A stretch of DNA of 61,993 nt, counting the filler. It is 4 parts of 4 records of this genome, joined end to end, with 100 filler letters (N's around TTAATTAATTAA, not from the genome) between each part and the next. Parts side by side here need not be neighbours in the genome. Positions count along the whole stretch, not along the records: positions 22,190 to 46,931 come from DRR378314_350; 3 more parts are not named here. The stretch is one strand, 5' to 3'. The notes beneath the pieces were generated by a model, which saw only the letters and a program-made list of their open reading frames with translations, had not been told where the DNA came from and did no database searches. Position numbers and translations under genes: made by a program. Below are positions 12,767-34,686 of this stretch, in pieces (within the stretch, counting starts at the first letter, position 1; each line of letters opens with the position of its first letter).

Positions 12767-12787
12767 TCGCTGCAGACAGCTTGATGA

Positions 12788-14645: not shown

Positions 14646-14653
14646 GGTCAGAC

Positions 14654-15472: not shown

Positions 15473-15571
15473 GCCCCTTCCGTAGGGTCGCCCCCCCGCA
15501 AGGGTCAGAAACTCCGTGACACCTGCGTCATTTTTTGGCCTTATGGGCTGAAAAACGGGCAGGAAACAGTC

Positions 15572-17065: not shown

Positions 17066-17075
17066 GGCTGGTCAA

Positions 17076-17735
17076 TCAGACAGGCTTGAACAGGCTCAAG
17101 GCCACGATGATGGCGATGAATACCCATATCATGACGATCAGGAAGCTTGCCTGATTTTCCAGAGCGCGGACGCGCGCATTGCGCGCGTCGGTCACGCCAT
17201 CCGTTTTCATTTCGCCCCAGACCCGGAAGAAACGGATAAGCTGTAGCCGCACCAGAACGCCAGTCGCGATCACACCGGCGAACGCCGCGAACTTGAATCG
17301 AAGCCAAAGTGGAATTGGCCAATCCCCTCCGATCACACCGATCGACATCAGCAGCAGAACGCCCATCAGCACATAGCGCGATCCACGGTCGAGTGCAGCG
17401 AGCCGGGCCCCTACTGCCGAGTGCCGCACGCGGTGAATGTATTCGACGAAGCCAAGCCAGAACACGCCAAGCACAGCGGCGGCGATCATCAATGTCTGGC
17501 CGCCGGGGACCCAGCCATACGCGGCCAGAAGAATGGTTCCGAGGGAGGCCTGAAGCACCAGCGCAAACCGGACGTGCTGATCCGTATTCATCACATGCTG
17601 CAGCATTCGGTCTCGCGCTTCGAGCGGAGAAGCAACGTCTCGGGTGGCGAACCGGAAAGAGGAATTGATGACCAATTCTGAGCCCAGCCAATATCCCACC
17701 ACGATAATGTGAGCCACGAGCAGCCAATGTATCAT
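17076..17735 (-). CDS. hypothetical membrane protein
   Basis: 219 aa with about 6 hydrophobic segments; no family recognised. Confidence 0.7.
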   Translation of the reverse strand: MIHWLLVAHIIVVGYWLGSELVINSSFRFATRDVASPLEARDRMLQHVMNTDQHVRFALVLQASLGTILLAAYGWVPGGQTLMIAAAVLGVFWLGFVEYIHRVRHSAVGARLAALDRGSRYVLMGVLLLMSIGVIGGDWPIPLWLRFKFAAFAGVIATGVLVRLQLIRFFRVWGEMKTDGVTDARNARVRALENQASFLIVMIWVFIAIIVALSLFKPV

Positions 17736-17898
17736 GCGGTTTCACCCCAAATCCGGTCCAGAGAAGCAGCAGCCAATGAGAGGCGCCCTCATTGATATAC
17801 CTTTCGAGGGTGGCGCAGATTGCTCCATCTTTCAATGGACACGTCATGGCCAGCCGATATCATCCGCCGCGTAGGGGCTTGATGAAGGAACTGGAACT

Positions 17899-18057
17899 AT
17901 GTGGCTTTGGCTATTGTGGTGGTGTGTAGACGATCATCTGGCAGATGCATTGGAAACGCCGGGCCTCGGGGAGCTGCCGATCTGGGTGCCCCTTGTCCTG
18001 TCGCTTGCCTTTGCGTTCACGATTGACGGCAAGGTCAAGAAACTCCGCAAGAAATAA
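17899..18057 (+). CDS. putative small membrane protein (52 aa)
   Basis: MWLWLLWWCVDDHLADALETPGLGELPIWVPLVLSLAFAFTIDGKVKKLRKK; purine-rich GAAGGAA upstream; below ORF-track cutoff. Confidence 0.5.
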   Translation: MWLWLLWWCVDDHLADALETPGLGELPIWVPLVLSLAFAFTIDGKVKKLRKK

Positions 18058-18062
18058 GCGGA

Positions 18063-19895
18063 TCAGCCTTCTGCAAATTGCAACTCGGCGAGGCGGGCAT
18101 AGAGCCCCCCTTTGGCGACGAGTTGGTCATGGTTGCCCTCTTCCACGATGCGGCCATGCTCCATCACGATGATCCGGTCCGCCCGGCGCACGGTCGACAG
18201 GCGGTGCGCAATGACGAGCGTCGTCCGGCCCTCAGCGGCATTGGAGATCGCGCGGCGCACCGCTGCCTCACTTTCGGAATCGAGCGCGGAGGTCGCCTCG
18301 TCCAGCAACAGGACCGGCGCGTCACGCACGAGCGCGCGCGCGAGGGCAACCCGCTGGCGCTGACCACCAGACAGGCTCCGCCCCTTCTGGCCGAGATCTG
18401 TCGCGAGGCCATCCTTCTCGGCGAGGAACTCGAACGCTTCCGCCATGCGCGCGGCATTTTCCAGCAGCGCCTCGTCGGGATTATCGGTCCCGAAGCCGAT
18501 ATTCTGCGCCGCCGTACCTGTGAACAAGGCAGACTCCTGCGGGGCATAGGCAAATTGCTGTCGCCAGTCGCGCGGATCCGCCTGCATCGCGGACACGCCG
18601 TCCAGAACAATTCGGCCTGACTGAACATCGAACAGGCGAAGCGCGAGACGGAAGACGGTTGTCTTGCCCGCACCACTGGGGCCGACCAGGGCAACAAACT
18701 CGCCGGGTTTCACAGACAGCGAGAAATGCTCCAGCGCCGATACGGTCTCATCCCCATAGCGGAAGGTGACGTCATCAAACTCCAACGCGCCAGTCACCGT
18801 CGCAGGCAGGGCCACCGGATGCTCTGGCGCAGTGATCTCGGGTTCGGCGTTCAGAACCTCTGCCGCGCGGTCCGCCGCACCCGCAGCGCGCATGACCTCG
18901 CCATAGACTTCCGCCAGCATTCCGAAGCCTGAACCGGCATAAAGCGCGTACAACACCATGGAGGCGAGATCGCCAAAGCTCATCTCCCCCGTCGCAACGG
19001 CGCGCGCACCAAGCCACAACACACCCACAAAGCCGCCAAACAACAGCACCGACACCAGCACGATCATGATGGAGCGCGCCCCGATCCGCCGCATCGCGGC
19101 CTCGAACGTTGCTTCGACCGCCTCGGTGAAAGCGCCAAGGCGGCTCTGTTCCCGGTTATAGGCCTGCACCAATTCGATGGCATCAAGCGCTTCGGCGGCC
19201 TCTGCCCCTGCATCTGCCAGCCGCGACTGTGCCCGGTTGGACATGGTTCGAATGACGCGGCCAATCGCCATCACGGGCAGCACCGCAATCGGCAGCATGG
19301 CCAGAAGGGTCAGCCCCAGTTTCCAGTTCACGACCAGCATCATGGTCAGCGCGCCGATTGTCGTCAGTAGGGTGCGTGTCGCCAGAGAGGCCGATGACCC
19401 GAGAAATGTCTCGATCAGGGTAATGTCTGCCGTCAGGCGTGAGACCGCCTCCCCCGACCGCATCTGGGAATGATAGCGCGGGGACAGCTTCAGAAGGTGG
19501 GCGTAGAGATCCTTGCGCAGGTCAGCGGCGATCCGCTCGCCGAAACGCGAGACGAAATAAAACCGGACAGCGCCAAGCACGCCAGACAGGATTGCCGCCA
19601 GCGCCACCCAGAGAAATGCGCGGTCGACCAGCGACAGCAATTCCTCGGCATTTCCCTGCGCCGCACTTCCGGCATCAGCAGCGCTGCCCAGAAGCAAGGG
19701 AATGGCAAGGCTGACAGCCGCAGCAGCGACCAGGAAGATCAGCGCAACCGTGACCGTCACCCAGTGACGCGCCACGTAGGGCAGCAGCAAGGCGAGCGGC
19801 TTCAGGGACTTCGCCTTGGGACGATGGACGGCCTCGCCACCCTCCGGCTGCGTTGCACGACGATCGTCTACAAGGGAGCTGTCAGTATCGGCCAT
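18063..19895 (-). CDS. ABC exporter, fused permease/ATPase (MsbA/ExsA-like)
   Basis: N-terminal TM domain; GPSGAGKT, LSGGQRQR, LLLDEATSALD, IAHRLST. Confidence 0.93.
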   Translation of the reverse strand: MADTDSSLVDDRRATQPEGGEAVHRPKAKSLKPLALLLPYVARHWVTVTVALIFLVAAAAVSLAIPLLLGSAADAGSAAQGNAEELLSLVDRAFLWVALAAILSGVLGAVRFYFVSRFGERIAADLRKDLYAHLLKLSPRYHSQMRSGEAVSRLTADITLIETFLGSSASLATRTLLTTIGALTMMLVVNWKLGLTLLAMLPIAVLPVMAIGRVIRTMSNRAQSRLADAGAEAAEALDAIELVQAYNREQSRLGAFTEAVEATFEAAMRRIGARSIMIVLVSVLLFGGFVGVLWLGARAVATGEMSFGDLASMVLYALYAGSGFGMLAEVYGEVMRAAGAADRAAEVLNAEPEITAPEHPVALPATVTGALEFDDVTFRYGDETVSALEHFSLSVKPGEFVALVGPSGAGKTTVFRLALRLFDVQSGRIVLDGVSAMQADPRDWRQQFAYAPQESALFTGTAAQNIGFGTDNPDEALLENAARMAEAFEFLAEKDGLATDLGQKGRSLSGGQRQRVALARALVRDAPVLLLDEATSALDSESEAAVRRAISNAAEGRTTLVIAHRLSTVRRADRIIVMEHGRIVEEGNHDQLVAKGGLYARLAELQFAEG

Positions 19896-20054
19896 TGGGT
19901 GTCTATAGTTCCTTTCAGATTCCCTGCCAGCAACCACTTGCAGAGGCGTCCTGTTTCAGTTACACGCGCCACTTCGAAAACAGGCTGAGACAAGCCCGCG
20001 CACCCGAACACGGCAGAGCGCGGTTGTCATTAGAGTTCAAGAGAGGCGAAGGCC

Positions 20055-20273
20055 ATGAAAAAAGAAGGTCATCCCGACTATCACTTCATCACCGTGGTGA
20101 TGACCGATGGCACCGAATACCAGACACGCTCCACCTATGGCAGCGAAGGCGACCGCCTTGTTCTGGATATCGACTCCAAATCGCACCCGGCATGGACCGG
20201 CGGCGACGGCAAGATGCTGGACCGCGGTGGCCGCGTGTCGCGCTTCAAAGACAAGTTCAAAGGCTTCATGTAA
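20055..20273 (+). CDS. rpmE: 50S ribosomal protein L31
   Basis: [10 protein letters not shown]...[14 protein letters not shown]...GGRVSRF. Confidence 0.97.
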
Positions 20274-20304
20274 GCGTCCTTCGCTTCGCATGATGCGTAC
20301 AGTG

Positions 20305-20335
20305 GAAAGCCCCGGCCTTTTGGCCGGGGCTTTTC
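20305..20335 (+). terminator. intrinsic terminator after rpmE
   Basis: GAAAGCCCCGGCC-TTTT-GGCCGGGGCTTTTC. Confidence 0.85.
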
Positions 20336-20378
20336 TGTTGATCCCACCATATCTGAATGTCGCGGCAGGACCGGCGGA

Positions 20379-20394
20379 TTAACCACCACTTAAC
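20379..20394 (+). promoter_or_regulatory. CtrA binding box
   Basis: TTAA-CCACCAC-TTAAC, exact TTAA-N7-TTAAC consensus, ending 45 bp upstream of the nuclease ATG. Confidence 0.7.
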
Positions 20395-20438
20395 CCGTCC
20401 AAGCGAGCGTGCCCTCCAATTCCAAGGAGGCACAAAGC

Positions 20439-20927
20439 ATGCTGCGCGGCGGTCAGGTCAAATCCCTCTTGTATTCCGTGACGATTCTCGCCGGACTGAC
20501 CGGAGCGGTTGCCCTGGCAGCACAGGCCACGATTGATCAGGACGGCCTGGTCTATTGGTCAGATGGTGATTCCGGGCGCCTTCCGGATGGCACCAAATTC
20601 CGCCTGCATGGCGTGGACGCACCAGAAACCCGAAGCCTGAAACAGATTGGCGGCGCAGAGTGCGAGTCCGAGCGTGAGCTTGGCTATATCGCCAAGGAGA
20701 AAGTGCTCGAACTGACGCGCGACGCGGATATCAAGGTGACGCGTGACTACGGGCCGGACCGGTACAAGCGGCAGGTGGTCGATCTCAGCATCAATGGCGA
20801 AGACCTCGCTGCACGCTTGGTGGCCGAAGGCACGCACCAGGTTTGGGATTATGATGGCGGTGCCCCAAAGCCGGACTGGTGTGCGCCCCGGCGTCCCGCA
20901 TCCAATACCGCCCCGTTGAGCCCGTAA
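20439..20927 (+). CDS. thermonuclease (SNase-like) family protein, signal peptide
   Basis: SDGDS, FRLHGVDAPE, DRYKR, LVAEG; hydrophobic N-terminus; RBS AAGGAGG. Confidence 0.88.
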   Translation: MLRGGQVKSLLYSVTILAGLTGAVALAAQATIDQDGLVYWSDGDSGRLPDGTKFRLHGVDAPETRSLKQIGGAECESERELGYIAKEKVLELTRDADIKVTRDYGPDRYKRQVVDLSINGEDLAARLVAEGTHQVWDYDGGAPKPDWCAPRRPASNTAPLSP

Positions 20928-20993
20928 GCCTTCGCTCAGCTTGCCCCTCGAGTGAACACTGCCTAGGCTTGCCCAGGAAGCCATGAGGAATTG

Positions 20994-21746
20994 ATGCCGA
21001 TGTTCAATTTGCGCCTGGCGATTGCGCCGCTGATCCTGTCCGGACTTGCGGCGTGCGACGCGCTGGATCCCCCGCCCCCGCAGACTCAGAAAATGCCGAG
21101 TGCAGAGACGAAGGCGCCCGTCGTCACGGATCGCCCGCTTGGTCTGGATGAAATCAGGACGCCTGCCGGCATTCGTGTGTTGCCGGCGGAAAAGCGTGTT
21201 CTCGTCTTGTCAGGTCACGTTGCAGCCGGGGCCGCGCTATATCGTGCTGGCGACCGCGAAGCTGCCACATCGCATTTCGGCCGCCTGACGACTGATGGCA
21301 CAGCGACAGAACGCGCCGGTTTTGAAGCATTTGGGTTTGAACCCGCAGCGTTTGACGATTTTCCGACAGACCCCACAGGCGGAACTGAAACAAGCGCTGA
21401 TCCGTCAGAAGCGGAAGCCCACATTCTGGACGTGATCGCTGAAACCGGCACAAGGCCGCTGGATCAGATCCTGTTCCTGCTGGAACAGTGCTCTGACTCC
21501 TACGCCACTGGCGTGTTGGACGCCGCCATTGAGCGCCCCCTCGCCTATCAGGCGTCATATGGCTACGCGGTCATCGCCCGTGACATCGCCCGCCAGATCG
21601 AAGACGGAGATGATCTCCTGCTGGAACTGGAGATATTGGTGCGGATGTGGCCTGATGAAGGCCCGGTAGACGCCGACGCCGTTGCGCCGGAGCCTGCCAT
21701 CGGCACGCAGGTCGCCCGCGCGCGCCTTGCGGCCTCAATCCTTTAG
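20994..21746 (+). CDS. hypothetical lipoprotein
   Basis: Lipobox LAAC after hydrophobic leader (LAIAPLILSGLAAC). Confidence 0.7.
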   Translation: MPMFNLRLAIAPLILSGLAACDALDPPPPQTQKMPSAETKAPVVTDRPLGLDEIRTPAGIRVLPAEKRVLVLSGHVAAGAALYRAGDREAATSHFGRLTTDGTATERAGFEAFGFEPAAFDDFPTDPTGGTETSADPSEAEAHILDVIAETGTRPLDQILFLLEQCSDSYATGVLDAAIERPLAYQASYGYAVIARDIARQIEDGDDLLLELEILVRMWPDEGPVDADAVAPEPAIGTQVARARLAASIL

Positions 21747-22089
21747 AAGGGCATCAATAAACCCGACCGCCTCTATCGAACTCCAGTCGGCATCGCCAGC
21801 CAGCCGGGCAATCTCGAGACCAGCTTCATCGTACAGGATCGTCGTCGGGAATCCCTGAGCGCCGCTATCATAGACGATTTCATACTGCTCCGGCGTCGCA
21901 ATGTGGAAGGTGATGTTGCTCGCGCCCAGTTCCCCGAGCCTCTGCGCGGCATAGTCCCGGTCCTCCTCGGAATCGACACTGATCGCCACGACTTCAAACC
22001 GGTCGCCGCCACGCGCTGTCTGCAATGCGCCCAACGAGGGCATCTCCTTTTCGCAGGGTGCGCACCAGGTGGCCCAGAAATTCACCAGC
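21735..22089 (-). CDS. TlpA-family thiol-disulfide reductase (5' truncated by contig end)
   Basis: NFWATWCAPCEKEMPSL, GFPTT, GDADW. Confidence 0.92.
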
Positions 22090-22189
22090 NNNNNNNNNNN
22101 NNNNNNNNNNNNNNNNNNNNNNNNNNNNNNNNNTTAATTAATTAANNNNNNNNNNNNNNNNNNNNNNNNNNNNNNNNNNNNNNNNNNNN
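22090..22189. other. artificial contig spacer
   Basis: N44-TTAATTAATTAA-N44, stop codons in all six frames. Confidence 0.99.
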
Positions 22190-22470: not shown

Positions 22471-22509
22471 GCTATGTCCGACATAAAAGTTGACTTTGTC
22501 AGACATAGC
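22471..22509. promoter_or_regulatory. tandem GntR/FadR-type operators around a -35 element
   Basis: TATGTC-C-GACATA (22473-22485) and TTTGTC-A-GACATA (22495-22507) flanking TTGACT (22490-22495). Confidence 0.7.
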
Positions 22510-22547
22510 CTCAAAGATGGCTTCCAACGTGAAGGAGTTCCGCCAAG

Positions 22548-23279
22548 ATGACCGAGATTTCCACATCAGCCGACGCCATGCTGTCGCATGCCCGACGGCT
22601 CGAAAGCGGGCGCGACGTGATGGACACACTGGCCGAGTTGGTCGAGGTCGCGGGGTTGAAAGTGGGCGACCGCTTGCCGCCCGAGGTGGAGCTGGCCCGT
22701 AAATTGGGGGTCAGCCGGTCCAAAGTGCGCGAGGCGCTGATGTCCTGGCAGAAGATGGGCATCGTGATGCGCAACAAGGGTGCCGGCACGGTGCTCGTGG
22801 CCGAGGTGTCACGCGGTGCGATCCACATGCCGCTGACCCTGAAGATCGAGGCTGAAAGCTTGCTCAGGACACATGCCGTGCGACGGCCGCTGGAGATCGA
22901 GGCTGCCCGCCTGGCCGCGCGCAATGCCAGCGAACAGCAGCGCCGCGAGATCTTCGCACGGATGTCCGAACTGCTCGCTGTCTTTGAAGCGCGCGAGGAT
23001 TGGCGCGGCAGCGACCACCGGTTCCACCAGGCTATCCACGAAGCCAGCGGCAACCCGCTCTTCGGTCAGTTCATCGAGCAGATCCAGCGCGCCTTCGACA
23101 GCGTGTACCCGGCGCCTCTGGGCAAACCGCAGCTTGGCGAGAGCACGATTCCGATGCACCGGCCGCTGGCCGCGGCAATTGCCGCGGGCGACGAAGGGGA
23201 GGCGGGCCGCGTGATGGCCGAGATCCTCGATATCGTCGCCGATGAGGTAGCCCGTGAGATGGAGGCTGCCCGTGGATAA
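22548..23279 (+). CDS. GntR/FadR family transcriptional regulator
   Basis: GDRLPPEVELARKLGVSRSKVREAL HTH; FCD domain DHRFHQAIHEASGN; RBS AAGGAG. Confidence 0.93.
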   Translation: MTEISTSADAMLSHARRLESGRDVMDTLAELVEVAGLKVGDRLPPEVELARKLGVSRSKVREALMSWQKMGIVMRNKGAGTVLVAEVSRGAIHMPLTLKIEAESLLRTHAVRRPLEIEAARLAARNASEQQRREIFARMSELLAVFEAREDWRGSDHRFHQAIHEASGNPLFGQFIEQIQRAFDSVYPAPLGKPQLGESTIPMHRPLAAAIAAGDEGEAGRVMAEILDIVADEVAREMEAARG

Positions 23280-24438
23280 CCGCTTGCCCCAGACCGGTCT
23301 CAACATCGCCACGCTTTTGTCAGAACCCTATCGCGCCGCTGGAGGGATCGCCTCGGCGGTGCCACCGATCGTGCAGACCTCACTCTTTACGTTTGATGAT
23401 TATGCCGCATTCGAGGCGCGCATGTCGGGGCAAGCGGACAGTCCTATTTACACGCGCGTGCAGAACCCCACGGTCAGCGCCTTTGAGGATCTGATGGCGC
23501 GGGCAGAGCTTGCCGAAGAAGGGATCGGCTTTGCCTCAGGCATGGCGGCGATCTCGGGCACGCTGTTGTCGCTGTTGTCACCGGGGGATCGTATCGCTTG
23601 CATCACCCATGTCTATTCCGACACGTTCCGCCTGATGGAAACGCATCTGAAGCCCTGCGGTATCCAAGTAAGCTACCATGACCCAGAGGCCTTTGAGTCC
23701 GATCCCGATCTGCTGAAGGGGGTGCAGCTGGCTTATCTGGAGAGCCCTGGTTCGATGATGATGCGAACGATGGATCTCGCGCGGGTTGCAGAACACGCCC
23801 GCCGTCATGGTGCGCTGACCGTTATAGACAACACCTGGGCCACGCCTGTGCTTCAGACGCCAATCGCACACGAGATAGATGTTTCGCTGCATTCAGCCTC
23901 GAAATATATTGGCGGCCATTCTGACACGGTGGCCGGTGTCGTTTGTACCAGCGCCGAGATAGCGGCCCGGATTCGCGCGCATGCCCTTACGCTCTTTGGT
24001 GGCAAGCTCGCACCGCTCGAAGCGTTTCTGCTCACGCGCGGGTTGCGCACCCTGAGCGCGCGGATCGCACAGCATCAACGCGCCGCCGACCTTTTCGTAA
24101 GCAGACTTTCCGACCGGGCAGAAGTACGGGCGGTACATGCGCCGGGACAGAGCGGCACGCTCAAAGGGCGTTCTGGCCTTATGTCCGTTGAGTTCGCCAA
24201 CACCGTAAACATTCCCCGCTTCGCGGATGCCCTGCGCCTGTTCCGGCTGGGCGTCAGCTGGGGGGGCTTTGAAAGCCTCATTCAGCCCGCACGCGTGGGG
24301 CTGGCGCAGGCTGCGGAACCCAATCCGATGCGCCATTTCGGCGTGCCGGAGCAGCTTGTCCGACTCAGCCTCGGGTTGGAGGACCCTGAGGATCTCTGGG
24401 CGGACTTCTGCACAGCACTTGACGCAGCAACAGACTGA
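23272..24438 (+). CDS. Cys/Met metabolism PLP-dependent enzyme (cystathionine lyase/gamma-synthase family)
   Basis: VPPIVQTSLF, YTRVQNPT, FASGMAAI, LESP, DNTWATP, HSASKYIGGHSD (PLP lysine), GVSWGGFESL, VRLSLGLE; GTG start with GGAGG. Confidence 0.92.
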   Translation: MDNRLPQTGLNIATLLSEPYRAAGGIASAVPPIVQTSLFTFDDYAAFEARMSGQADSPIYTRVQNPTVSAFEDLMARAELAEEGIGFASGMAAISGTLLSLLSPGDRIACITHVYSDTFRLMETHLKPCGIQVSYHDPEAFESDPDLLKGVQLAYLESPGSMMMRTMDLARVAEHARRHGALTVIDNTWATPVLQTPIAHEIDVSLHSASKYIGGHSDTVAGVVCTSAEIAARIRAHALTLFGGKLAPLEAFLLTRGLRTLSARIAQHQRAADLFVSRLSDRAEVRAVHAPGQSGTLKGRSGLMSVEFANTVNIPRFADALRLFRLGVSWGGFESLIQPARVGLAQAAEPNPMRHFGVPEQLVRLSLGLEDPEDLWADFCTALDAATD

Positions 24439-24469
24439 AAAAACGGGAAAATCAACAGGAGGAAACCCC

Positions 24470-25729
24470 ATGAAACGTATTGCATTGCCCGCAGCGATGA
24501 CCGCCGTGCTGATGGCCTCGGGCGCGTATGCCGAGACGCAGCTGAAACTTGTTGAGGTGATCACCAGCCCTGAACGCACCAAGGTGTTGCAGCAGTTGGT
24601 CGACGAATATGAAGCCGCCAACGAGGGGGTCGAGGTGGAGATCGTTTCGCTGCCTTGGGGCCAGGCGTTCGAGAAGCTGGCAACCATGGTGGCCGGTGGT
24701 GATATTCCCGACGTGGTCGAGATGCCGGAGCGCTGGCTTTCGCTCTACGCAGGGGCCGACAAGCTGGTGAACCTGGAAGAGCACATCGCAAAATGGGAAC
24801 ATGGCGAGACGCTGTCGGACAAGACCATGGACATGGCGCGCTATGCCGGGGGCGAAGCGCACATGCTGCCATACGGCTTCTACCTGCGGGCAATGTTCTA
24901 CAACAAGAAGCTTCTCAACGAAGCTGGTGTCGAACCGCCCAAGACCATGGACGAATTCAAGCAGGCCGCTGCGGCAGTGTCCGAACTGGATGGCAAGTCG
25001 GGCTATTGCCTGCGCGGTGGTCCCGGCGGGCTGAACGCTTGGGTGATGATGGCCGCGGCGATGAACGGCACAAATGAATTTTTCACTGAGGACGGTCAGA
25101 GCCGGATCAATGAGCCGGGATCGGTCGAGGGTCTGCAATTCCTGATCGACATGTACCAGGATGGCAACGCGCCCCGCGACAGCGTCAACTGGGGCTTTAA
25201 CGAGATCGTAGCCGGCTTCTATTCCGGCACCTGCGCCTTCCTCGATCAGGATCCCGACGCGCTGATCGCAGTATCAGAGCGGATGCCAGCGGAGGATTTC
25301 GCGGTGATACCAATGCCGGTCGGTCCTTCAGGCAAGGCATTCCCGACCATGGGGTTCGTCGGCTGGTCGATCTTCAACACGACCGAGCATGAAGACGAGG
25401 CCTTCGATCTGGTCGCGCATCTGTCGACGCCTGAAACCAACGCCACATGGACCAAGCGCGTGGGCGTCATCCCAATCCACGAGGGCGCGGACGAAGATCC
25501 ATACTTCAAAACAGAGCAGTTCGCCGGCTGGTTCGAGACTATGGAAAGTGCAGACTATGTGCCCACCATCATGCCCAGTTATCTGGAACAGTTCGGATAT
25601 TTTGCAGACTCCATCGCACTGGATTCCAGCCAGGAAGCACTGCTGGGCCAGCGCAGCGCGCAGGACATCGCTGATGAATGGGCGGCCTTCCTGACCGAGC
25701 AATACGCCGTATGGAAGTCGGAGCAATGA
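24470..25729 (+). CDS. carbohydrate ABC transporter substrate-binding protein (CUT1)
   Basis: Sec leader MKRIALPAAMTAVLMASGAYA; GGDIPDVVEM; MFYNKKLL..AGVEPPKTMDEF; RBS AGGAGG. Confidence 0.92.
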   Translation: MKRIALPAAMTAVLMASGAYAETQLKLVEVITSPERTKVLQQLVDEYEAANEGVEVEIVSLPWGQAFEKLATMVAGGDIPDVVEMPERWLSLYAGADKLVNLEEHIAKWEHGETLSDKTMDMARYAGGEAHMLPYGFYLRAMFYNKKLLNEAGVEPPKTMDEFKQAAAAVSELDGKSGYCLRGGPGGLNAWVMMAAAMNGTNEFFTEDGQSRINEPGSVEGLQFLIDMYQDGNAPRDSVNWGFNEIVAGFYSGTCAFLDQDPDALIAVSERMPAEDFAVIPMPVGPSGKAFPTMGFVGWSIFNTTEHEDEAFDLVAHLSTPETNATWTKRVGVIPIHEGADEDPYFKTEQFAGWFETMESADYVPTIMPSYLEQFGYFADSIALDSSQEALLGQRSAQDIADEWAAFLTEQYAVWKSEQ

Positions 25730-26658
25730 CCTCTGCCACTAAAACAGTCACGCCCGGGGGATCCCGGGCGCGACGCTCCTTCTACCTGAGCTATTTCGTA
25801 GAGCCCTACCTCTACATAGGTCCGGCATTGATGTTGATCGGGGCTGTGATTTTGGTCCCGTTGATCCTCGGTATCTCTTATTCCTTCCAGTCAATCTCGC
25901 TGCTCAAGCCGTTCGACACCGGCTGGGTGGGGATCGAGAATTACATCGACCTGTGGTCGGACCGAAAGTTTTGGAAGGCCATCGAAAACACCGCGCTTTG
26001 GACCTTTGGATCGCTGGTCTTTCAGTTCTTCCTGGGCCTCGGCCTTGCGCTGATCCTGAATACAGCCTTTCCCGGCAAGCGGCTGTTCCAGGCGCTGGTG
26101 TTCCTGCCCTGGGCGGTGCCGACCTTCCTGACAGCGCTGACTTTTGCCTGGCTTTTCAACCCGGTCATCGGCCCCTTTCCACACTGGTTGGCGGAGCTCG
26201 GCATTCTTGATGAGCCCTACAACATCCTGGGCGACCCGAGCCTTGCGATGTGGGGGCCGATCCTGGCCAATATCTGGTTTGGCGTGCCGTTCTTTGCCAT
26301 CACCTTGCTGGCGGCGCTGCAATCCATTCCCAGCGAACTCTACGAGGCCGCCGAGATGGACGGCGCCAGTGACTGGCAATGCTTCGCCAAGATTACCCTG
26401 CCCTACCTTGCGCCGATGATCACCATCACCGTCATGCTGCGCACCATCTGGATCGCGAACTTCGCCGACATGATCTACGTGATGACCGGCGGCGGCCCAG
26501 CCGGATCGACCGAAATTCTGTCATCCTACGTCTTCACCACGGCCTTCCGAAAACTCGACTTCGGCTATGCGTCTGCCATCGCGGTCGCCCTTCTGTTCAT
26601 CCTTCTGATCTACGCACTGATCTTGCTGTTCGTACGTCGAAAGCTGGTCAAGACCTGA
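25726..26658 (+). CDS. carbohydrate ABC transporter permease (MalF-like)
   Basis: EAA loop LQSIPSELYEAAEMDGAS; MTGGGP; ATGA overlap. Confidence 0.93.
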   Translation: MTSATKTVTPGGSRARRSFYLSYFVEPYLYIGPALMLIGAVILVPLILGISYSFQSISLLKPFDTGWVGIENYIDLWSDRKFWKAIENTALWTFGSLVFQFFLGLGLALILNTAFPGKRLFQALVFLPWAVPTFLTALTFAWLFNPVIGPFPHWLAELGILDEPYNILGDPSLAMWGPILANIWFGVPFFAITLLAALQSIPSELYEAAEMDGASDWQCFAKITLPYLAPMITITVMLRTIWIANFADMIYVMTGGGPAGSTEILSSYVFTTAFRKLDFGYASAIAVALLFILLIYALILLFVRRKLVKT

Positions 26659-26670
26659 GGAGGCGCCCCC

Positions 26671-27510
26671 ATGTCCACAGTCACCCAACCCTCGGCCATG
26701 AGAACCACCGGCAAATACGCCGCCATCGGGTTCTACCTGATTTTCGCGCTGTTCCCGATCTACTGGCTGGTCAAGATCGCGCTGACGCCGGATGCGTTGA
26801 TCTATTCCGAGGGCACGCGAATGCTGCCCTCGACGCTGACCTTTGAGAATTTCGCAGCGGTGCTGCAAAGCGAGTTTCTCAGCTACTTCGCCAACAGCCT
26901 GATCGTGTCGCTGGGCGCGGCGACGGGCACCACGTTGGTCGCGGCCGGAGCTGGGTATTGCTTCTCGCGGTTCCGCTTCGCCGGCAAGAAGGTGATCATC
27001 GCCCTGCTGCTCATCACGCAGATGTTCCCACTGCTGATGATCATCGCGCCGATCTACAAAATCGTGGCTTCGCTGGGCCTGCTAAATTCGCTGACCAGCC
27101 TGATCGTGGTCTACACCGCCTTCAACGTCCCCTTCGCGACGTTCCTGATGCAATCTTTCTTCGACGGCATCCCGGAGGATCTGGAAGAGGCGGCGATGAT
27201 GGATGGCTGTTCGAGGTTTCAGGCACTGCGCAAGGTGGTTTTTCCGCTGACGCTTCCGGGACTTGGCGCGACGCTAGGCTTTGTCTTCACCGCGGCCTGG
27301 TCGGAACTGCTTTTCGCGCTCATGCTTATTTCCAAGAATGACACGATGACCTTCCCGGTCGGTTTGCTGACTTTCGTGTCGAAATTCTCGGTGGACTGGG
27401 GGCAGATGATGGCGGCGGGCACGCTGGCGCTGATCCCCAGCTGTCTCTTCTTCATCTTCATACAACGCTACCTCGTGCAGGGACTGACGTCCGGCGCGGT
27501 CAAGGGATAA
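26671..27510 (+). CDS. carbohydrate ABC transporter permease (MalG-like)
   Basis: IPEDLEEAAMMDGCS; QRYLVQGLTSGAVKG. Confidence 0.93.
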   Translation: MSTVTQPSAMRTTGKYAAIGFYLIFALFPIYWLVKIALTPDALIYSEGTRMLPSTLTFENFAAVLQSEFLSYFANSLIVSLGAATGTTLVAAGAGYCFSRFRFAGKKVIIALLLITQMFPLLMIIAPIYKIVASLGLLNSLTSLIVVYTAFNVPFATFLMQSFFDGIPEDLEEAAMMDGCSRFQALRKVVFPLTLPGLGATLGFVFTAAWSELLFALMLISKNDTMTFPVGLLTFVSKFSVDWGQMMAAGTLALIPSCLFFIFIQRYLVQGLTSGAVKG

Positions 27511-27521
27511 CGGAGGCGATC

Positions 27522-28601
<1,080 letters not shown>

Positions 28602-28675
28602 GCTGCCCCCCACCTGAGAGAACCGGCGAGGCGCCCAATGCGCCCCGTTCCCTTCCACTCATCCAGAGGTTCGCC

Positions 28676-28903
28676 GTGAATAAGCCAATGTCCCCCGCTT
28701 CCCCTGACATCGATCTGACCGAAACCGAAGAATGGATCGAAGCGCTCCACAGCTTCGTCGGCACTGGCAAGCCGGAGCCTGCGGAATACGTGGTGACCCA
28801 GTTGCAGGACCGCGCCCGCAATCGCGAGAACCTGCGTCGATATTTCGGCGGTGACCGCGAGACGATCAACCAAGCGGCGCTGCAAAGCTGCAAGGATGCG
28901 TAA
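28676..28903 (+). pseudogene. internally deleted homodimeric 2-oxoacid dehydrogenase E1 (AceE/MdeB-like) relic
   Basis: DIDLTETEEWIEALHS...AEYVVTQL resembles the AceE N-terminus; it is directly fused (about 28820) to NRENLRRYFGGDRETINQAAL, resembling the AceE C-terminal RENLRxxFEVD..I..AAL motif. Confidence 0.7.
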
Positions 28904-28943
28904 CATGTCCCCATTCTCGAACCCCGACCAACTAGGAGCCCCG

Positions 28944-30212
28944 ATGACCGACCATCCCTCGCTCGGCGCCTCGGACACCGAGGCCAGCTGGCTGCAAGAC
29001 TCCGCCCATCGCGACTGGCTGGCCCGGCACGCCTTGACGCAGTTTGCCTTCTTCCGTCGCTGTCTGCGGCCCGAGCCAGGGTTTCACCTGCTGGACACCG
29101 ACGGCAGCCCGATCTCCGGCGCTCCGCAGCAGCTGCATGACACGTCCCGGCTGGTGCATTCCTTCGCCCTCGGGCAAATCGCGGGCGTTCCGGATGCGGT
29201 GGAGGTGGTCGATAAAGGCATGGACTTTCTCTGGTCGCATCATCGCGACAGGCAACATGGAGGTTACCTCTATGCCTTGGATGACGCAGCTGTGTTCGAC
29301 GGGGTCAAGCTGGCCTACGGTCATGTTTTCGTCCTGCTGGCCGGTGCCAGCGCCAAGCTCTGCGGCCATCCCGACGCAGATCGGCTGATCGCCGATGTGA
29401 CCGAGGTTCTGGACAGCCGCTTCTGGGACGAGGACCGCGGACTGTTCGCCGACGAGTTCAATCGCGACTGGGCGCCGTTCTCCAACTATCGCGGCATGAA
29501 CGCCAACATGCATGGAATCGAAGCACTGCTCACCGCCCATGAGGCCACGGGCGAGTCGACATATCTATCCCGCGCCGGCCGCATTCTCGATTTTTTCACC
29601 GCGCGCATCGCGCCCACGCATGGCTGGCGTCTGCCCGAGCACTACACCGCCGACTGGCAGGTCGACCCGGACTACGAAGGCAACCCGATGTTCCGCCCCG
29701 CTGGCACCACGCCCGGCCATTCCTTCGAACTGGCAAGGCTCCTGCTGCAACAATGGGACCTGAACGGCCGCCCAGATGACGGCGCCCCTGCGCGGGCGCG
29801 CAGCCTGTTCGAGACAGCCCTGAGCGACGCTGCGGACCCGGAGCGCGGTGGCTTTGTCTACACCGTCGGGATCGACGGTCAATGGATGCGCCGGTCGCGC
29901 TATTGGTGGCCGGTGACTGAAGCCATCGGCGCGGTGGCAACCTTCCTCAAACTTGACTGGCGTGAAACGGATGAGGCGCTGTACCGTGAGCTCTGGCGCT
30001 TCGCCGCGGACCACCTGATCGATCAGGAGTACGGTGGATGGTTCCCCGAGCTCGACGACGCCAACCGCCCGGTGCACACTCAATTCACCGGCAAGCCGGA
30101 CATCTACCACTCGATCCAGGCGTCTCTGTTTCCTTTGGTACCCAGGCTGTCGCACGTTGCCGCGAACCTAAAGGGGTGCTTTGATCATGCGACCCGAGGT
30201 GAAGGGGACTAA
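28944..30212 (+). CDS. AGE-family sugar epimerase/isomerase (YihS/mannose isomerase-like)
   Basis: RLVHSF, KLAYGHVF, YRGMNANMH, GTTPGHSFE, RYWWPVTE, GKPDIYH; RBS AGGAG. Confidence 0.92.
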   Translation: MTDHPSLGASDTEASWLQDSAHRDWLARHALTQFAFFRRCLRPEPGFHLLDTDGSPISGAPQQLHDTSRLVHSFALGQIAGVPDAVEVVDKGMDFLWSHHRDRQHGGYLYALDDAAVFDGVKLAYGHVFVLLAGASAKLCGHPDADRLIADVTEVLDSRFWDEDRGLFADEFNRDWAPFSNYRGMNANMHGIEALLTAHEATGESTYLSRAGRILDFFTARIAPTHGWRLPEHYTADWQVDPDYEGNPMFRPAGTTPGHSFELARLLLQQWDLNGRPDDGAPARARSLFETALSDAADPERGGFVYTVGIDGQWMRRSRYWWPVTEAIGAVATFLKLDWRETDEALYRELWRFAADHLIDQEYGGWFPELDDANRPVHTQFTGKPDIYHSIQASLFPLVPRLSHVAANLKGCFDHATRGEGD

Positions 30213-30472: not shown

Positions 30473-30615
30473 CCGTAAATTTTGCAGTTCGTCGATGTCC
30501 AGAAATGTCCGTTATGTCGCCTTTTATCGCAGAATGGCGCAGATATACTTGCTTAAGGAGCAACGGGCTTCATACTTGCATCAGGAAGAAAATGCATGGG
30601 CCGTAAATTTTGCAG
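30473..30615 (+). repeat. perfect 15-bp direct repeat pair upstream of tupB
   Basis: CCGTAAATTTTGCAG at 30473-30487 and 30601-30615. Confidence 0.85.
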
Positions 30616-31317
30616 AACATGGGAGAAGCCATCTCGCTGGCGCTTCAGCTGGTAACCTCCGGCAACGCCGATCTCTATGAGATCGTCGGCCTGTCTCTGC
30701 GCGTTAGCCTCAGTGCCACAATGTTTGCCTGCCTCATCGGGTTGCCGGTCGGCGCGTGGATGGCAATCAGCCGGTTTCGCGGTCGTGGCGCGGTCCTGGT
30801 ACTGATGAACGCCCTGATGGGGCTGCCGCCCGTCGTGGTTGGCCTGTTGGTCTACCTGCACCTGTCACGATCTGGGCCGCTGGGGTTTCTGGGCCTACTT
30901 TACACCCCCAGTGCGATGATCATCGCGCAGACAATTCTGATCGCACCGATCGTCGCCGCCCTGTCCCGGCAGGTACTGGAGGATTTGCATACGGAGTACG
31001 CGGAACAGTTCCGCTCGCTCTGTCTGAGCCGTGTGCAAACGATCACAGCACTTCTGTGGGACGCCCGATACTCGCTGCTGACCGTTGGCTTGGCCGGGTT
31101 TGGTCGCGCCGTGGCCGAAGTGGGCGCGGTCATGATCGTGGGCGGTAATATCGACCATCTGACCCGTGTGATGACCACGGCAATCGCACTGGAAACCTCC
31201 AAAGGGGATCTGGCGCTGGCGCTGGCGCTTGGGCTGGTGCTTCTAGTGATCGCACTGGGGGTCAATGCTGCAGTGCAGAGCCTACGGATGAGCGCGCGGA
31301 GGCAGGCCTATGTCTAG
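30610..31317 (+). CDS. tupB: tungstate ABC transporter permease
   Basis: NALMGLPPVVVGL, GFGRAVAEVGAVMIVGGNI...TRVMTTAIALETSKG; start TTG 30610 or ATG 30619. Confidence 0.9.
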   Translation: MQNMGEAISLALQLVTSGNADLYEIVGLSLRVSLSATMFACLIGLPVGAWMAISRFRGRGAVLVLMNALMGLPPVVVGLLVYLHLSRSGPLGFLGLLYTPSAMIIAQTILIAPIVAALSRQVLEDLHTEYAEQFRSLCLSRVQTITALLWDARYSLLTVGLAGFGRAVAEVGAVMIVGGNIDHLTRVMTTAIALETSKGDLALALALGLVLLVIALGVNAAVQSLRMSARRQAYV

Positions 31318-32068
31318 CATCGACACCGTTGGCTTCGCACCACAGGCACGGCCGGCCCAGCGTGAGGCCAATCTGCTGCCCTTGCGCGTGCGCGGGCTCG
31401 AACTGAGCTGTGATGGCACGCCCATCCTGCGTGGTCTCGATCTGGATCTGGCGCCCCATGGCTGCACCGCGATCATGGGGCCCAACGGGGCCGGCAAGAG
31501 CCTGCTACTGAAAATCCTGCACGGGCTGATCGCGCCCACATCCGGACGGATTGAATGGGGCAATCAATCCCCGGCGCAAGTCACCAAACGGCAGGCTCTG
31601 GTGTTTCAGAAGCCGGTTCTGCTGCGCCGATCCGTCGCCGCCAATATTGACTTTGTCCTGAAAGCGCGCGGCAAGCCTCGTCGGTCGCGCGACGCATTGC
31701 TGGACCACGTCGGTCTGCTCCACAAGGCCCGCCACCCGGCTCGGCGTCTTTCCGGCGGGGAGGCCCAACGGCTTGCCTTGGCCCGTGCGCTCGCGACAGA
31801 GCCGGAGGTGCTGTTGCTGGACGAGGCGACCGCGAGCCTTGACCCTGCCTCCGCCCAGGCGATCGAGGCCATTGTGCGCGACGCCTGCACCAGTGGCATT
31901 CGCGTGATTTGTGTCACCCATGACATCGGCCAGGCCAAGCGTCTCGCCGATGATGTGGTGTTCCTGCATGGCGGCTGCGTGGCCGAGCACAGCCCGGCGT
32001 GCGACTTCTTTCCCGAACCGCAATCCTCTGCGGCACGGGATTATTTGAACGGCAGACTTGTTTTCTGA
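31310..32068 (+). CDS. tupC: tungstate ABC transporter ATPase
   Basis: GPNGAGKS, VFQKPVLLRRSV, LSGGEAQR, LDEATASLDP; between tupB and tupA. Confidence 0.88.
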   Translation: MSSIDTVGFAPQARPAQREANLLPLRVRGLELSCDGTPILRGLDLDLAPHGCTAIMGPNGAGKSLLLKILHGLIAPTSGRIEWGNQSPAQVTKRQALVFQKPVLLRRSVAANIDFVLKARGKPRRSRDALLDHVGLLHKARHPARRLSGGEAQRLALARALATEPEVLLLDEATASLDPASAQAIEAIVRDACTSGIRVICVTHDIGQAKRLADDVVFLHGGCVAEHSPACDFFPEPQSSAARDYLNGRLVF

Positions 32069-32092
32069 CCAACACCTTAAGGGAGATCCCAT

Positions 32093-32914
32093 ATGAAGCT
32101 GAACCAGTCCTTCGGTGCGTCCATTGTCGCGCTGACTCTCGCCACAAGCGCCATTGCCGCCGACCAGTCGATCATCGTGCAATCGACCACATCGACCGCG
32201 AATTCAGGCCTCTACGACTATCTGCTGCCGATGTTTCAGGACAAAACTGGCATCCAGGTGAATGTCGTTGCTGTCGGTACAGGCCAGGCGATCAAGAACG
32301 CGCAGAACTGCGATGGCGACGTGCTGCTGGTCCACGCCAAGGCGTCTGAGGAGAAATTCGTCGAGGCGGGATTTGGCACCACGCGCACCGACCTGATGTA
32401 CAATGATTTCGTCATCGTCGGCCCCGCCGCAGACCCGGCAAACGTCGGTGGCATGGATGATGTGCAGGGTGCATTGTCGAAGATCTCCGACTCCGAGGCG
32501 CTGTTTGCCTCGCGCGGGGACGATTCCGGCACCCACAAGAAAGAGGTCGCGCTCTGGGCTGATGCGGGGGTCGATCCGGCGACCGGATCGGGTGAGTGGT
32601 ACCGCGAGACCGGCTCCGGCATGGGCGCAACGCTTAACGCGGGCATCGGCATGGGCGCCTATGTGATGACCGACCGCGCCACCTGGATCAGCTTTGGCAA
32701 CAAGCAGGACTATGAGATAAAGGTCGAGGGTGACGACGATCTGTTCAACCAATATGGCGTGATCCCGGTCAATCCGGTGCAATGCCCCTCGGTCAATGTC
32801 GAGGCCGCCAAGAGCTTTGCCGATTGGCTGATCTCCGAAGATGGCCAGAGCGCCATCGCCGCTTATGAAGTCAGCGACCAGCAACTGTTCTTCCCCAACG
32901 CGCCGAAGAACTGA
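32093..32914 (+). CDS. tupA: tungstate-binding periplasmic protein
   Basis: STTSTANSGL (TTS motif), VGTGQA, LVHA, MYNDF, SRGDDSGTH, DRATW. Confidence 0.93.
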   Translation: MKLNQSFGASIVALTLATSAIAADQSIIVQSTTSTANSGLYDYLLPMFQDKTGIQVNVVAVGTGQAIKNAQNCDGDVLLVHAKASEEKFVEAGFGTTRTDLMYNDFVIVGPAADPANVGGMDDVQGALSKISDSEALFASRGDDSGTHKKEVALWADAGVDPATGSGEWYRETGSGMGATLNAGIGMGAYVMTDRATWISFGNKQDYEIKVEGDDDLFNQYGVIPVNPVQCPSVNVEAAKSFADWLISEDGQSAIAAYEVSDQQLFFPNAPKN

Positions 32915-32960
32915 TACAGTCTGTGGGGCGGCACATTCGCCGCCCCCAACAGACTGCGAC

Positions 32961-33854
32961 ATGACCGATCTCGATTTCCCAGACCACGAATACCTGACCG
33001 TCCCCGAACTGGCGGAGCTGCTGCGCCTGAAGGAACGCAAGATCTATGACCTGGCGGCCTCGGGCCAGGTGCCCTGTTCCCGCGCCACTGGCAAGCTACT
33101 GTTTCCGGCCGCCGAAATCCGCAGCTGGATCGAGCAGGCCAAGTCCGGGGGGGCCGCGCCGCAACCGCAGGTCGACCGTCCACAGATCCTGCTGGGCAGC
33201 CATGATCCCTTGCTCGACTGGGCCGTTCGGCAGTCGCGTTCCGGCCTTGCGAGTTATTTCGACGGTTCAATGGACGGGCTGGAGCGGTTCGCCAAGGGCG
33301 ATGGGATCGCAGCGGGCCTGCATCTGCGGGACAGTAAGTCCGGCGTCTGGAACATCCCTGCGGTGCAGCGTGTCGCCAAGGGCCAGACTTGCGTCCTCAT
33401 CCGCTTTGCCAGCCGTCAGCGTGGCCTTGTCCATCGCGAAGACCACCCCGCACCCGCATCTCTGTTCGATATCCAAGGCCTGCGCCTTGCCCCCCGCCAA
33501 CCGGGATCGGGCACGGATCGGCTTTTCCGTGATCTGGCTGTAGAGGCACAGCTTGATCTTGCGGAGCTGACACTGACCGAAGTGGCCCGGTCTGAGGATG
33601 AGGCGGTGGAGAGCGTGCGTCGGGGTGCGGCGGATGTGACCTTTGGCCTTGAGGCGATGGCGCAGAGCTACGGGTTGCGGTTTACCCCGCTGGTGCAAGA
33701 GGAATTTGCCCTGCTGGTGGACCGCAAGGCCTGGTTCGAGCCCCCTTTCCAGACCTTTCTGACCTTCTGCCGGACTGAAACCTTTGCCCAGCGCGCAGCC
33801 AGCATGGGCGGCTATGACGTCTCGGACCTGGGCGCGGTGCTTTGGAATGCCTGA
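32961..33854 (+). CDS. excisionase-like HTH + molybdate/tungstate PBP-like domain regulator
   Basis: YLTVPELAELLRLKERKIYDLA...RATGKLLFP HTH; GSHDPLLDW, GSMDGL, RQRGL, RQPGSG PBP-like motifs. Confidence 0.85.
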   Translation: MTDLDFPDHEYLTVPELAELLRLKERKIYDLAASGQVPCSRATGKLLFPAAEIRSWIEQAKSGGAAPQPQVDRPQILLGSHDPLLDWAVRQSRSGLASYFDGSMDGLERFAKGDGIAAGLHLRDSKSGVWNIPAVQRVAKGQTCVLIRFASRQRGLVHREDHPAPASLFDIQGLRLAPRQPGSGTDRLFRDLAVEAQLDLAELTLTEVARSEDEAVESVRRGAADVTFGLEAMAQSYGLRFTPLVQEEFALLVDRKAWFEPPFQTFLTFCRTETFAQRAASMGGYDVSDLGAVLWNA

Positions 33855-33876: not shown

Positions 33877-34686
33877 TCAGGACCGCCAGTCCAGCACCCG
33901 TCGCTCGATCATGCCGATGGCACCGGAGGTCAGCACCCCCAGCAGCGACAGGATCACCACGCCGGCAAACAGCCGTTCCAGATCATAGAGCGAGCCCGCT
34001 TCGAGGATATAGGCGCCGATGCCGTATTGCGCGCCCAGCATCTCTGCCGCGACCAGCAGGATGATGGCGATGGCGAGGCTGATCCGCAGACCGGAGAGGA
34101 TGCCGGGCATCGCCCCGGGCAGCACGATCTTGCGCACGATCGACAGCCACGACAGGCCGAAGCTCTGCCCCATGCGGATCAGGGAGCGATCCACATTGTC
34201 CACCGCGCCATAGGTTGCAACCACCGTGGGCGTGAAGGTGCCAAAGGCGATCAATGCGTATTTCGACCCTTCGTCGATGCCGAACCAGATCACGAACAGC
34301 GGCAGCAGCGCGATTTTCGGGATCGGGAAAATGGCCGCCGTCAGCGGCACCAGCCCGGCGCGCACAAAGGAGAACAGCCCGATCAGAATGCCAACGCCCA
34401 CGCCGACACTGGCGCCCAGCGCGGCCCCCACGGCAAGGCGGGTCAACGACGGCACCATATGTTTGACGAACAGGCCCGATTGCCACAGCTCCACCAGCGT
34501 GGCGAGCACATCGGAGGGTCTGGGCAGGGTCAGGGCCGAGATGAAGCCGGCCCGCGTGCCCCATTCGACAAAGCCGATGATCACGGCAAAGACGGCAAGG
34601 CCAACCCAGCGATGCGCCTTGGGGGCAAACCCGCCGCCGCGAAAACGGACCTCAAGCGGTTGGCGCGACAAAGACGTGTCAGACAT
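33877..34686 (-). CDS. NitT/TauT family ABC permease
   Basis: FPIPKIALLPLFVIWFG, LPGAMPGILSGLRISLA, LVAAEM. Confidence 0.92.
   Translation of the reverse strand: MSDTSLSRQPLEVRFRGGGFAPKAHRWVGLAVFAVIIGFVEWGTRAGFISALTLPRPSDVLATLVELWQSGLFVKHMVPSLTRLAVGAALGASVGVGVGILIGLFSFVRAGLVPLTAAIFPIPKIALLPLFVIWFGIDEGSKYALIAFGTFTPTVVATYGAVDNVDRSLIRMGQSFGLSWLSIVRKIVLPGAMPGILSGLRISLAIAIILLVAAEMLGAQYGIGAYILEAGSLYDLERLFAGVVILSLLGVLTSGAIGMIERRVLDWRS

Follow-up and report, generated by a model that had tools for sequence, protein, structure and literature searches.

The window analyzed here is a 61,993-nucleotide stretch of DNA assembled from four joined contigs, and at positions 22548-30212 it carries a unit of genes, all on the + strand, for a regulator, a pyridoxal 5´-phosphate (PLP) enzyme of the Cys/Met family, a periplasmic binding protein, two permeases, an ATPase, a short open reading frame (ORF) and a protein of the AGE superfamily. 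We think that the first six of these genes act as a cassette that probably breaks down a sugar-linked amino acid.

The regulator (243 amino acids; 22548-23279) has a GntR helix-turn-helix (HTH) domain and an FCD effector domain, both above their cutoffs (PF00392, 45.7 bits; PF07729, 82.9 bits), which makes it FadR-like, with putative operators upstream. Its reading frame overlaps that of the PLP enzyme (394 amino acids; 23254-24438), and 31 bases separate the PLP gene from the gene for the CUT1-type binding protein (419 amino acids; 24470-25729), which has a signal-peptide-like N-terminus and an SBP_bac_1 domain (PF01547, 137.7 bits). The start of the first permease gene (MalF/UgpA type; 25726-26658) overlaps the stop codon of the binding-protein gene. 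Both this permease and the second (MalG/UgpE type; 26671-27510) match BPD_transp_1, and the ATPase, of the UgpC/MalK type with a TOBE domain (27522-28601), scores 480.6 bits with NF008653 (cutoff 432); together with the binding protein, these components make up a complete importer of the CUT1 type. Downstream lie a 75-codon remnant of a 2-oxoacid dehydrogenase E1 gene (28676-28903) and the AGE protein (422 amino acids; 28944-30212; PF07221, 335.3 bits), an aldose-ketose isomerase of the YihS/mannose-isomerase branch. The long ORF of the latter opens at 28851, and the ATG at 28944, preceded by AGGAG, is its likely start.

The original prediction had described a co-oriented, tightly packed unit that joins a PLP enzyme with an intact lysine motif to a complete carbohydrate ATP-binding cassette (ABC) importer and a YihS-type AGE protein, with neither a glycosidase nor a kinase. 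This description holds. All the claimed genes lie on the + strand with overlaps or gaps of ~30 bases, the motif HSASKYIGGHSD is present, the binding protein, two permeases and ATPase are all found, the nearest solved relatives of the AGE protein are YihS, sulfoquinovose isomerase and mannose isomerases, and no glycosidase or kinase was found within the unit. From this layout we infer that the genes form an operon.

The PLP enzyme matches PF01053 over its full length (residues 33-389; 288.8 bits against a gathering score of 27). Its PLP lysine is K217, in the SASKY of the lysine motif SASKYIGGHSD, and its family is marked by the signatures VY[PS]D and VSWGG[FH]ESL, the second of which reads VSLGDAESL in methionine gamma-lyase. 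In the alignment, Y66, R68, Y121, D192, K217 and R370 occupy the positions of the catalytic residues of Pseudomonas putida methionine gamma-lyase, and none of them varies among the 24 family sequences compared; on the basis of the literature on that enzyme, we take these Tyr, Arg, Asp and Lys residues to be catalytic and cofactor-binding. The YGC motif around Cys116 of the P. putida enzyme, presumably its active-site cysteine, is not kept, and is replaced by Y-S-D in the window and by Y-P-D in 22 of 24 relatives.

The model that fits the enzyme best, by a wide margin, is NF004627 (subfamily NF004627/PRK05968), which carries the product name 'hypothetical protein' and is matched over its full length at 6 bits below the cutoff (502.1 vs 508). 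All equivalog models of named Cys/Met enzymes score far below their cutoffs, including those for methionine gamma-lyase (TIGR01328, 265.9 vs 549.7; NF005263, 254.7 vs 617; NF005695, 242.1 vs 666) and for cystathionine enzymes (for example TIGR01324, 223.4 vs 365.9, and NF005871, 216.9 vs 513). The second-best NCBIfam match is the archaeal Ala/Glu racemase model NF041088, at 273 bits against a cutoff of 629. Since it falls far below the cutoff of every equivalog model, the enzyme does not belong to the ordinary cystathionine or methionine enzymes, in line with the original prediction. A search with the 61 residues surrounding VSWGG could not tell beta- from gamma-lyases, a search of the ESM Atlas returned generic names only, and all source names found for relatives were likewise generic.

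The structure predicted for the binding protein (predicted local distance difference test, 90.1) most resembles those of MalE-like proteins that bind di- and oligosaccharides, to which its sequence is 18-23% identical. Such a fold would fit a glycoside-sized ligand and names none. The best NCBIfam match, a weak one, is to UgpB. Mean column identity is 69% over 34 sequences from soil and marine clades, and this strong conservation suggests a single ligand. The charged residues that do not vary among them include E29, R36, D81, E84, K176, R182, D237, D261 and D263.

The unit ends at 30212, and the genes beyond it encode unrelated transporters, namely a PBP_like_2 ABC system, an NMT1-type ABC system, and a TonB receptor with a FecCD system. 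At 30610-33854 lies a small ABC system, unrelated to the unit, with a permease, an ATPase, a PBP_like_2 binding protein and an HTH_17/PBP_like regulator.

Conservation of the six-gene core

We collected related loci from genome contigs (7), from whole-genome searches (16 more) and from a metagenome scan (80 more, taken from at least 548 stretches that encode a relative); the unit recurs in many bacteria of soil and sea. The 104 related loci are not independent, and some are near-identical; the tree on which they are placed comes from a quick search. In the seven loci on genome contigs (55-90% identity), the regulator, PLP enzyme, binding protein, two permeases and ATPase are all present in the same order, and the named carrier genomes are Rubellimicrobium, Wenxinia, Rhodovulum and Marinovum. 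The closest relative of the unit lies in a Marinovum sp. metagenome-assembled genome (L013); across the six core genes, the two are 88-91% identical in DNA and 90-96% identical in protein sequence. An exact-sequence look-up of seven window proteins found no identical entry.

Failure of the lyase and ABC genes to co-occur in other genomes was among the outcomes that would have counted against the original prediction, and they do co-occur. A binding-protein gene, counted as orthologous when at least 45% identical and beside the PLP gene, is found in 83 of the 104 loci, while 14 loci are too short to judge and seven are without it. In one draw of 401 Rhodobacteraceae genomes, the PLP gene was present in 13 and the binding protein in nine, and the two were adjacent in all nine. 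Thus, across the loci and genomes searched, the importer was not found without the PLP enzyme, and the PLP enzyme was sometimes found without the importer. Among the seven loci that lack a binding protein, L020 is an outgroup of 31% identity. Three others (L032, L037 and L039) form one clade nested among importer-linked loci, and L033, L057 and L060 are nested in the same way; these importer-less loci look like secondary losses.

Two kinds of importer-less locus have distinctive neighbors. In L033 (8718-13763), the genes for the regulator, the PLP enzyme, an AidB-like lactonase-type metallo-beta-lactamase (MBL) protein (143.2 bits against a cutoff of 360), a SoxH-related MBL protein and a PF04143 protein lie on one strand. 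In L037 and L039, the stand-alone PLP orthologues sit just downstream of cbb3 oxidase genes (COX1, FixO, FixP, FixG, FixH and a P-type ATPase), which looks like shared synteny rather than shared function.

The conserved core is the regulator, the PLP enzyme and the four importer genes. When neighboring ORFs were clustered, no other family was common to more than 11 loci, and the largest cluster is probably an antisense artefact; the ORFs were chosen by a picker based on GC content at third codon positions, which is approximate and missed genes in lower-GC loci. With no further widely shared neighbor, the conserved unit comprises six genes and a single enzyme. Flanking genes at other loci, among them CorA, GGDEF/EAL, DabA, asparagine synthase, a TonB receptor and the cbb3 oxidase, were considered and rejected as unrelated. 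A short-chain dehydrogenase/reductase gene lies near five loci; such genes are common.

The PLP gene itself is accessory rather than housekeeping. Two samples of 401 genomes contained it in 13 and four genomes, respectively, and no orthologue was found in 41 relatives of the genome nearest to the window, where the best match was 39% identical.

A regulator orthologue lies upstream of the PLP gene in related loci, and the sites before it are conserved in part of the family. In the window, two operator-like palindromes, TGTCCGACA at 22475-22483 and TGTCAGACA at 22497-22505, lie 65 and 43 bases upstream of the regulator start codon, and TTGACT, read by eye, precedes the second. The start given in the original prediction, 22471, falls on these two sites. 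Their pattern, TGTCNGACA, occurs upstream of the regulator, mostly in two copies, in 18 of 22 loci whose GntR protein is at least 56% identical to that of the window; it is missing upstream of the soil-clade regulators, which are only 35-43% identical. We assume that a palindromic GT-N-AC consensus is the operator type of FadR-like GntR regulators. FCD-type GntR regulators often control sugar-acid genes. The window holds six matches to the pattern where 0.77 would be expected; the four other exact sites are at 24813-24821, within the binding-protein gene, and at 34677-34685, 3228-3236 and 47292-47300.

Helper genes in the marine clade

The short ORF after the ATPase gene is the residue of an E1 gene. 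Its 75 codons consist of ~48 N-terminal and ~27 C-terminal codons fused in frame, and both ends align to the intact E1 gene of the Marinovum genome (L013:9212-11806), which has 864 codons counted from the ATG at 9212, within an ORF of 908 amino acids; this ATG aligns with the start codon of the window relic. The deletion junction is at 28819-28820, where the flanks correspond to L013 positions 9365 and 11722. The alignments overlap by 2 bases (CA) at the junction, and 2358 bases, or 786 codons, are missing in frame. With 75 of 864 codons kept, the thiamine pyrophosphate-binding, middle and C-terminal domains are all gone. The intact protein matches PDH_E1_M (PF17831, 328.1 bits) and passes TIGR03186 (1472.6 against a cutoff of 1408.3), which we take to be the MdeB family, an AceE paralogue found beside methionine gamma-lyase genes. 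The E1 relic of the original prediction is therefore genuine.

In the Marinovum genome, the E1 gene sits between the ATPase gene and an AGE remnant (L013:11722-12131), in which there is a one-base frameshift and similarity ends after ~95 codons. The two closest genomes have each lost a different helper, E1 in the window and AGE in Marinovum, as in a mirror image. A second, distant type of E1 occupies the same slot elsewhere: an 819-amino-acid AceE-like protein is encoded after the ATPase gene in L030 (2770-5229), L048 and L051, and convergently in L052. This protein has Transketolase_N and TK_C domains and no PDH_E1_M match, is 26% identical to the Marinovum E1, and scores 163.4 with the aceE model (cutoff 859.9).

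The AGE protein belongs to the isomerase branch of its superfamily. It is above the PF07221 cutoff and closer to isomerases, the best solved relatives being YihS (203.8 bits), sulfoquinovose isomerase (198.2 bits) and the Marinomonas protein 5x32 (191.1 bits), than to 2-epimerases (~46-74 bits; cellobiose 2-epimerase, 46). It scores 306.3 with the D-mannose isomerase equivalog NF051846, below the cutoff of 600. Apart from the window and the Marinovum remnant, an AGE gene adjoins five of the 104 loci. The homologues, 59-62% identical to that of the window, are convergent with the unit in L029, directly downstream of it in L031 and L035, and downstream of the E1-like gene in L048 and L051. In L034 the slot is filled by a cupin D-lyxose/D-mannose isomerase (14769-15440), which starts 18 bases after the ATPase gene, matches PF07385 (325.4 bits), falls below the cutoff of NF051472 (213.1 vs 350), and is non-homologous to AGE. 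Presumably the known substrates of the two families overlap.

The original prediction had counted the AGE isomerase and E1 into the pathway, which the related loci do not support as stated: neither belongs to the conserved unit, and each is optional and accompanies the cassette only in the marine clade of the window. The recurrence of two unrelated isomerase families and two distant E1 types in one slot argues for a functional tie to the cassette, which we regard as a loose one.

Proposed reaction and alternatives

We suggest that the unit would be a substrate-inducible catabolic cassette, with two TGTCNGACA sites placed before the gene of an FCD-type GntR repressor. What the CUT1 importer brings in would be a polar compound, about as large as a glycoside and an L-alpha-amino acid in its own right, and the PLP enzyme, as the sole core enzyme, would cleave this compound by beta- or gamma-elimination, a reaction type suggested by its family. 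This would yield a 2-oxoacid (2-oxobutyrate or pyruvate), ammonia and a sugar-like part, with no further dedicated genes needed. Some marine lineages may have added an aldose-ketose isomerase for manno or lyxo sugars, which would pass the sugar into central metabolism, and a 2-oxoacid dehydrogenase E1, which would remove 2-oxobutyrate; in the window, the E1 gene bears the in-frame deletion and the isomerase gene is intact. That elimination splits an imported glycoside-like amino acid into ammonia, a manno-type sugar and either 2-oxobutyrate or pyruvate seems to us quite possible, if short of probable.

The helpers narrow the choice of substrate. The E1 genes point to 2-oxobutyrate, and so to gamma-elimination of a homoserine or homocysteine derivative or to beta-elimination of a threonine derivative, while the isomerases suggest that what is released is an aldose of manno or lyxo configuration. 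Our guess is an O-glycosyl threonine, serine or homoserine, such as O-mannosyl-threonine, with an S-linked analogue as the next candidate; O-mannosyl-threonine/serine or a homoserine glycoside fits both the E1 and the isomerase helpers. A more specific version, in which the PLP enzyme would be the founder of a new class of activity, a "glyco-amino-acid lyase" that deglycosylates O-glycosyl threonine, serine or homoserine by elimination and not by hydrolysis, is attractive and rather doubtful. Its candidate substrate would be O-mannosyl-threonine/serine from glycoprotein breakdown, which would give mannose, 2-oxobutyrate or pyruvate, and ammonia. We also considered, and rejected, a sugar-amino-acid dehydratase of the glucosaminate type, as no keto-deoxy-sugar kinase or aldolase is nearby and neither helper gene would be explained.

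Several observations weigh against the reading that an imported glycoside-like amino acid is cleaved by elimination. The helpers occur in a minority of loci, all in one clade of 28 loci that holds the window (AGE gene or remnant in seven, cupin in one, E1 or relic in six), and both are decaying in the closest pair of genomes. AGE homologues are present in 66 of 401 Rhodobacteraceae genomes, most of which lack the cassette; they are adjacent to it in only three of the 66 and elsewhere have no conserved neighbors. Because these homologues are common and their neighbors are not fixed, shared ancestry could explain part of the recurrence. The PLP gene stands without the importer in six loci of the family, so the enzyme can act on something that the importer does not bring, and the four genomes with a stand-alone PLP gene in the 401-genome draw had no binding-protein orthologue at E≤1e-30. 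The setting of L033 hints at a sulfur compound rather than an O-glycoside. As for the enzyme, the family profile gives the archaeal racemase 9iz5 337.4 bits and methionine gamma-lyase 330.9; the W of VSWGG and the S of VYSD in the window are common to the racemase, where the lyase has L and G; and Asp stands at the Cys116 position of the lyase. Since the racemase shares these motifs and tops the family profile, sequence does not settle the reaction type, which is suggested only by the family and the neighbors.

The assembly adds two caveats. Linkers of the form N44-TTAATTAATTAA-N44, at 22090-22189, 46932-47031 and 52204-52303, connect the contigs of the window and place stop codons in all six frames, and gene neighborhoods across these joints are not real because the parts are separate contigs. 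The first joint (22090-22189) bounds the unit from outside; the unit starts 358 bases past it, so the window DNA upstream is not the true neighbor of the unit. Moreover, the contig that carries the unit (22190-46931) has no counterpart in the nearest reference genome (G001), to which 2100-22089 of the first contig is 99% identical and the last two contigs match at only 69-74% over ~500 bases. Compared with that reference, much of the window is accessory or foreign, and the contig of the unit is either accessory DNA or DNA of another organism within the assembly. Its tetranucleotide usage correlates with that of the first contig (r = 0.90) and of the Marinovum locus (r = 0.92).

The best-surviving alternative, which we nonetheless hold to be unlikely, is that the imported compound is cysteine or homocysteine joined through sulfur to a polyol or sugar, such as S-ribosylhomocysteine or the S-glycerylcysteine derived from bacterial lipoproteins, and that the PLP enzyme is a C-S lyase that releases a thiol, with no ordinary aldose set free. 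Most of the solved enzymes nearest to the family act on C-S bonds more often than by any other chemistry, an E1 of the MdeB type is consistent with a homocysteine thioether being cleaved at the gamma position, and the ATPase passes the UgpC model while the binding protein weakly matches UgpB, a binder of glycerol derivatives. The packed, one-strand array in L033, where two MBL-fold proteins and PF04143 ('sulphur transport') follow the regulator and PLP genes, also agrees with it. However, this sulfur-related context is found in one of the 104 loci only, the conserved core has no gene for handling a thiol or sulfide, and two unrelated manno/lyxo isomerases are hard to fit to a thiosugar or thioglycerol.

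A second alternative takes the PLP enzyme for a racemase, an epimerase or another non-eliminating enzyme that acts on the amino-acid part of the import or on a sugar amino acid such as a 2-amino-2-deoxy-aldonate, with further breakdown by genes elsewhere. The best solved relative is indeed the archaeal L-alanine/L-glutamate racemase, whose model is the second-best match and whose VSWG motif and YS pair the window enzyme has in common, and the link between FCD-type GntR regulators and sugar-acid genes would suit such a substrate. Yet the racemase model is missed by a wide margin, epimerization alone yields nothing usable and no follow-up enzyme is conserved nearby, the annotated flanks hold no kinase or aldolase for keto-deoxy sugar acids, and an E1 of the alpha-ketobutyrate type at the locus fits a 2-oxoacid product. 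We consider this quite improbable. Least likely of all, and by our estimate very improbable, is that the genes are neighbors without a shared pathway, the importer and AGE protein serving a plain sugar and the PLP enzyme ordinary sulfur amino-acid metabolism: although the binding protein resembles plain oligosaccharide binders, six loci have the PLP gene alone and AGE homologues stand alone elsewhere, the co-occurrence data (a PLP gene always next to the binding-protein gene, in nine of nine genomes, and the same order in 83 loci) make mere neighborhood unlikely, as do the operon-like spacing, the overlap of the regulator and PLP genes, the conserved operator-like sites, and a PLP gene that is rare, accessory and below the cutoffs of the known Cys/Met equivalogs.

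Solidly conserved and widespread, the cassette would be an operon for the catabolism of a specific substrate, with an enzyme of the PLP lyase type at its center. If a sugar-type importer does supply a PLP lyase, some sugar-like amino-acid conjugate would have to be abundant enough in soil and sea to sustain a pathway of its own, and identifying that substrate would name both a new exometabolite flux and a new reaction of a well-studied enzyme family. If the glyco-amino-acid lyase version is true, the lyase and importer would form a widespread and hitherto overlooked route of glycoprotein recycling in soil and marine Alphaproteobacteria. The system lends itself to study: its binding protein, enzyme and regulator are single, the putative operator is clear, and there are cultured carriers such as Rubellimicrobium mesophilum DSM 19309 and Wenxinia saemankumensis DSM 100565.

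Comparison with known systems

The original prediction knew of no characterized pathway with this layout, and we found no paper on one, nor on the PLP family or the cassette, in the literature searched, which is thin in subscription journals; 'PRK05968' was not mentioned in it. The nearest described layout is mdeAB of P. putida. There, as 10.1101/2022.07.13.499613 confirms for the gene order that had been cited in support of the prediction, mdeA lies next to mdeB, and MdeB is an AceE homologue that prefers alpha-ketobutyrate. The likeness is that a Cys/Met PLP gene adjoins an AceE-like E1, and that the intact E1 of the Marinovum genome passes TIGR03186. The differences are that the PLP enzyme of the cassette fails the methionine gamma-lyase tests (265.9 vs 549.7 with TIGR01328, and Asp in place of Cys116), that the cassette adds a CUT1 importer and a GntR/FCD regulator, and that its E1 is facultative and deleted in the window.

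A second parallel, one of description, is the canavanine gamma-lyase pathway of Pseudomonadaceae and Rhizobiales (PMC9533460). It too reportedly relies on a specialized PLP gamma-lyase of the superfamily, acting on an environmental amino acid of the O-substituted homoserine type, but that substrate is no sugar conjugate, whereas the cassette has a carbohydrate-type importer. The archaeal Ala/Glu racemase (9iz5, NF041088) is the top solved profile match (337.4 bits) and shares the VSWG and YS motifs; it differs in its model score (273 vs 629) and in setting, that of the cassette being catabolic and importer-linked.

Among sugar pathways, the solved structures closest to the AGE protein are those of YihS, sulfoquinovose isomerase and the mannose isomerases (2rgk, 2afa, 7ag4 and 5x32), with 191-204 bits over almost its entire length. 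None of the kinase, aldolase and reductase genes of sulfoglycolysis lies near the AGE gene of the window, and the mannose isomerase equivalog is not reached (NF051846, 306.3 vs 600). The Agrobacterium units for mannopine and deoxyfructosyl-glutamine combine ABC uptake of a sugar-amino-acid conjugate with a catabolic enzyme and a regulator. These opine and Amadori pathways use oxidoreductases or deglycases on N-linked conjugates without a free alpha-amino group, whereas the only core enzyme of the cassette needs a free alpha-amino acid.

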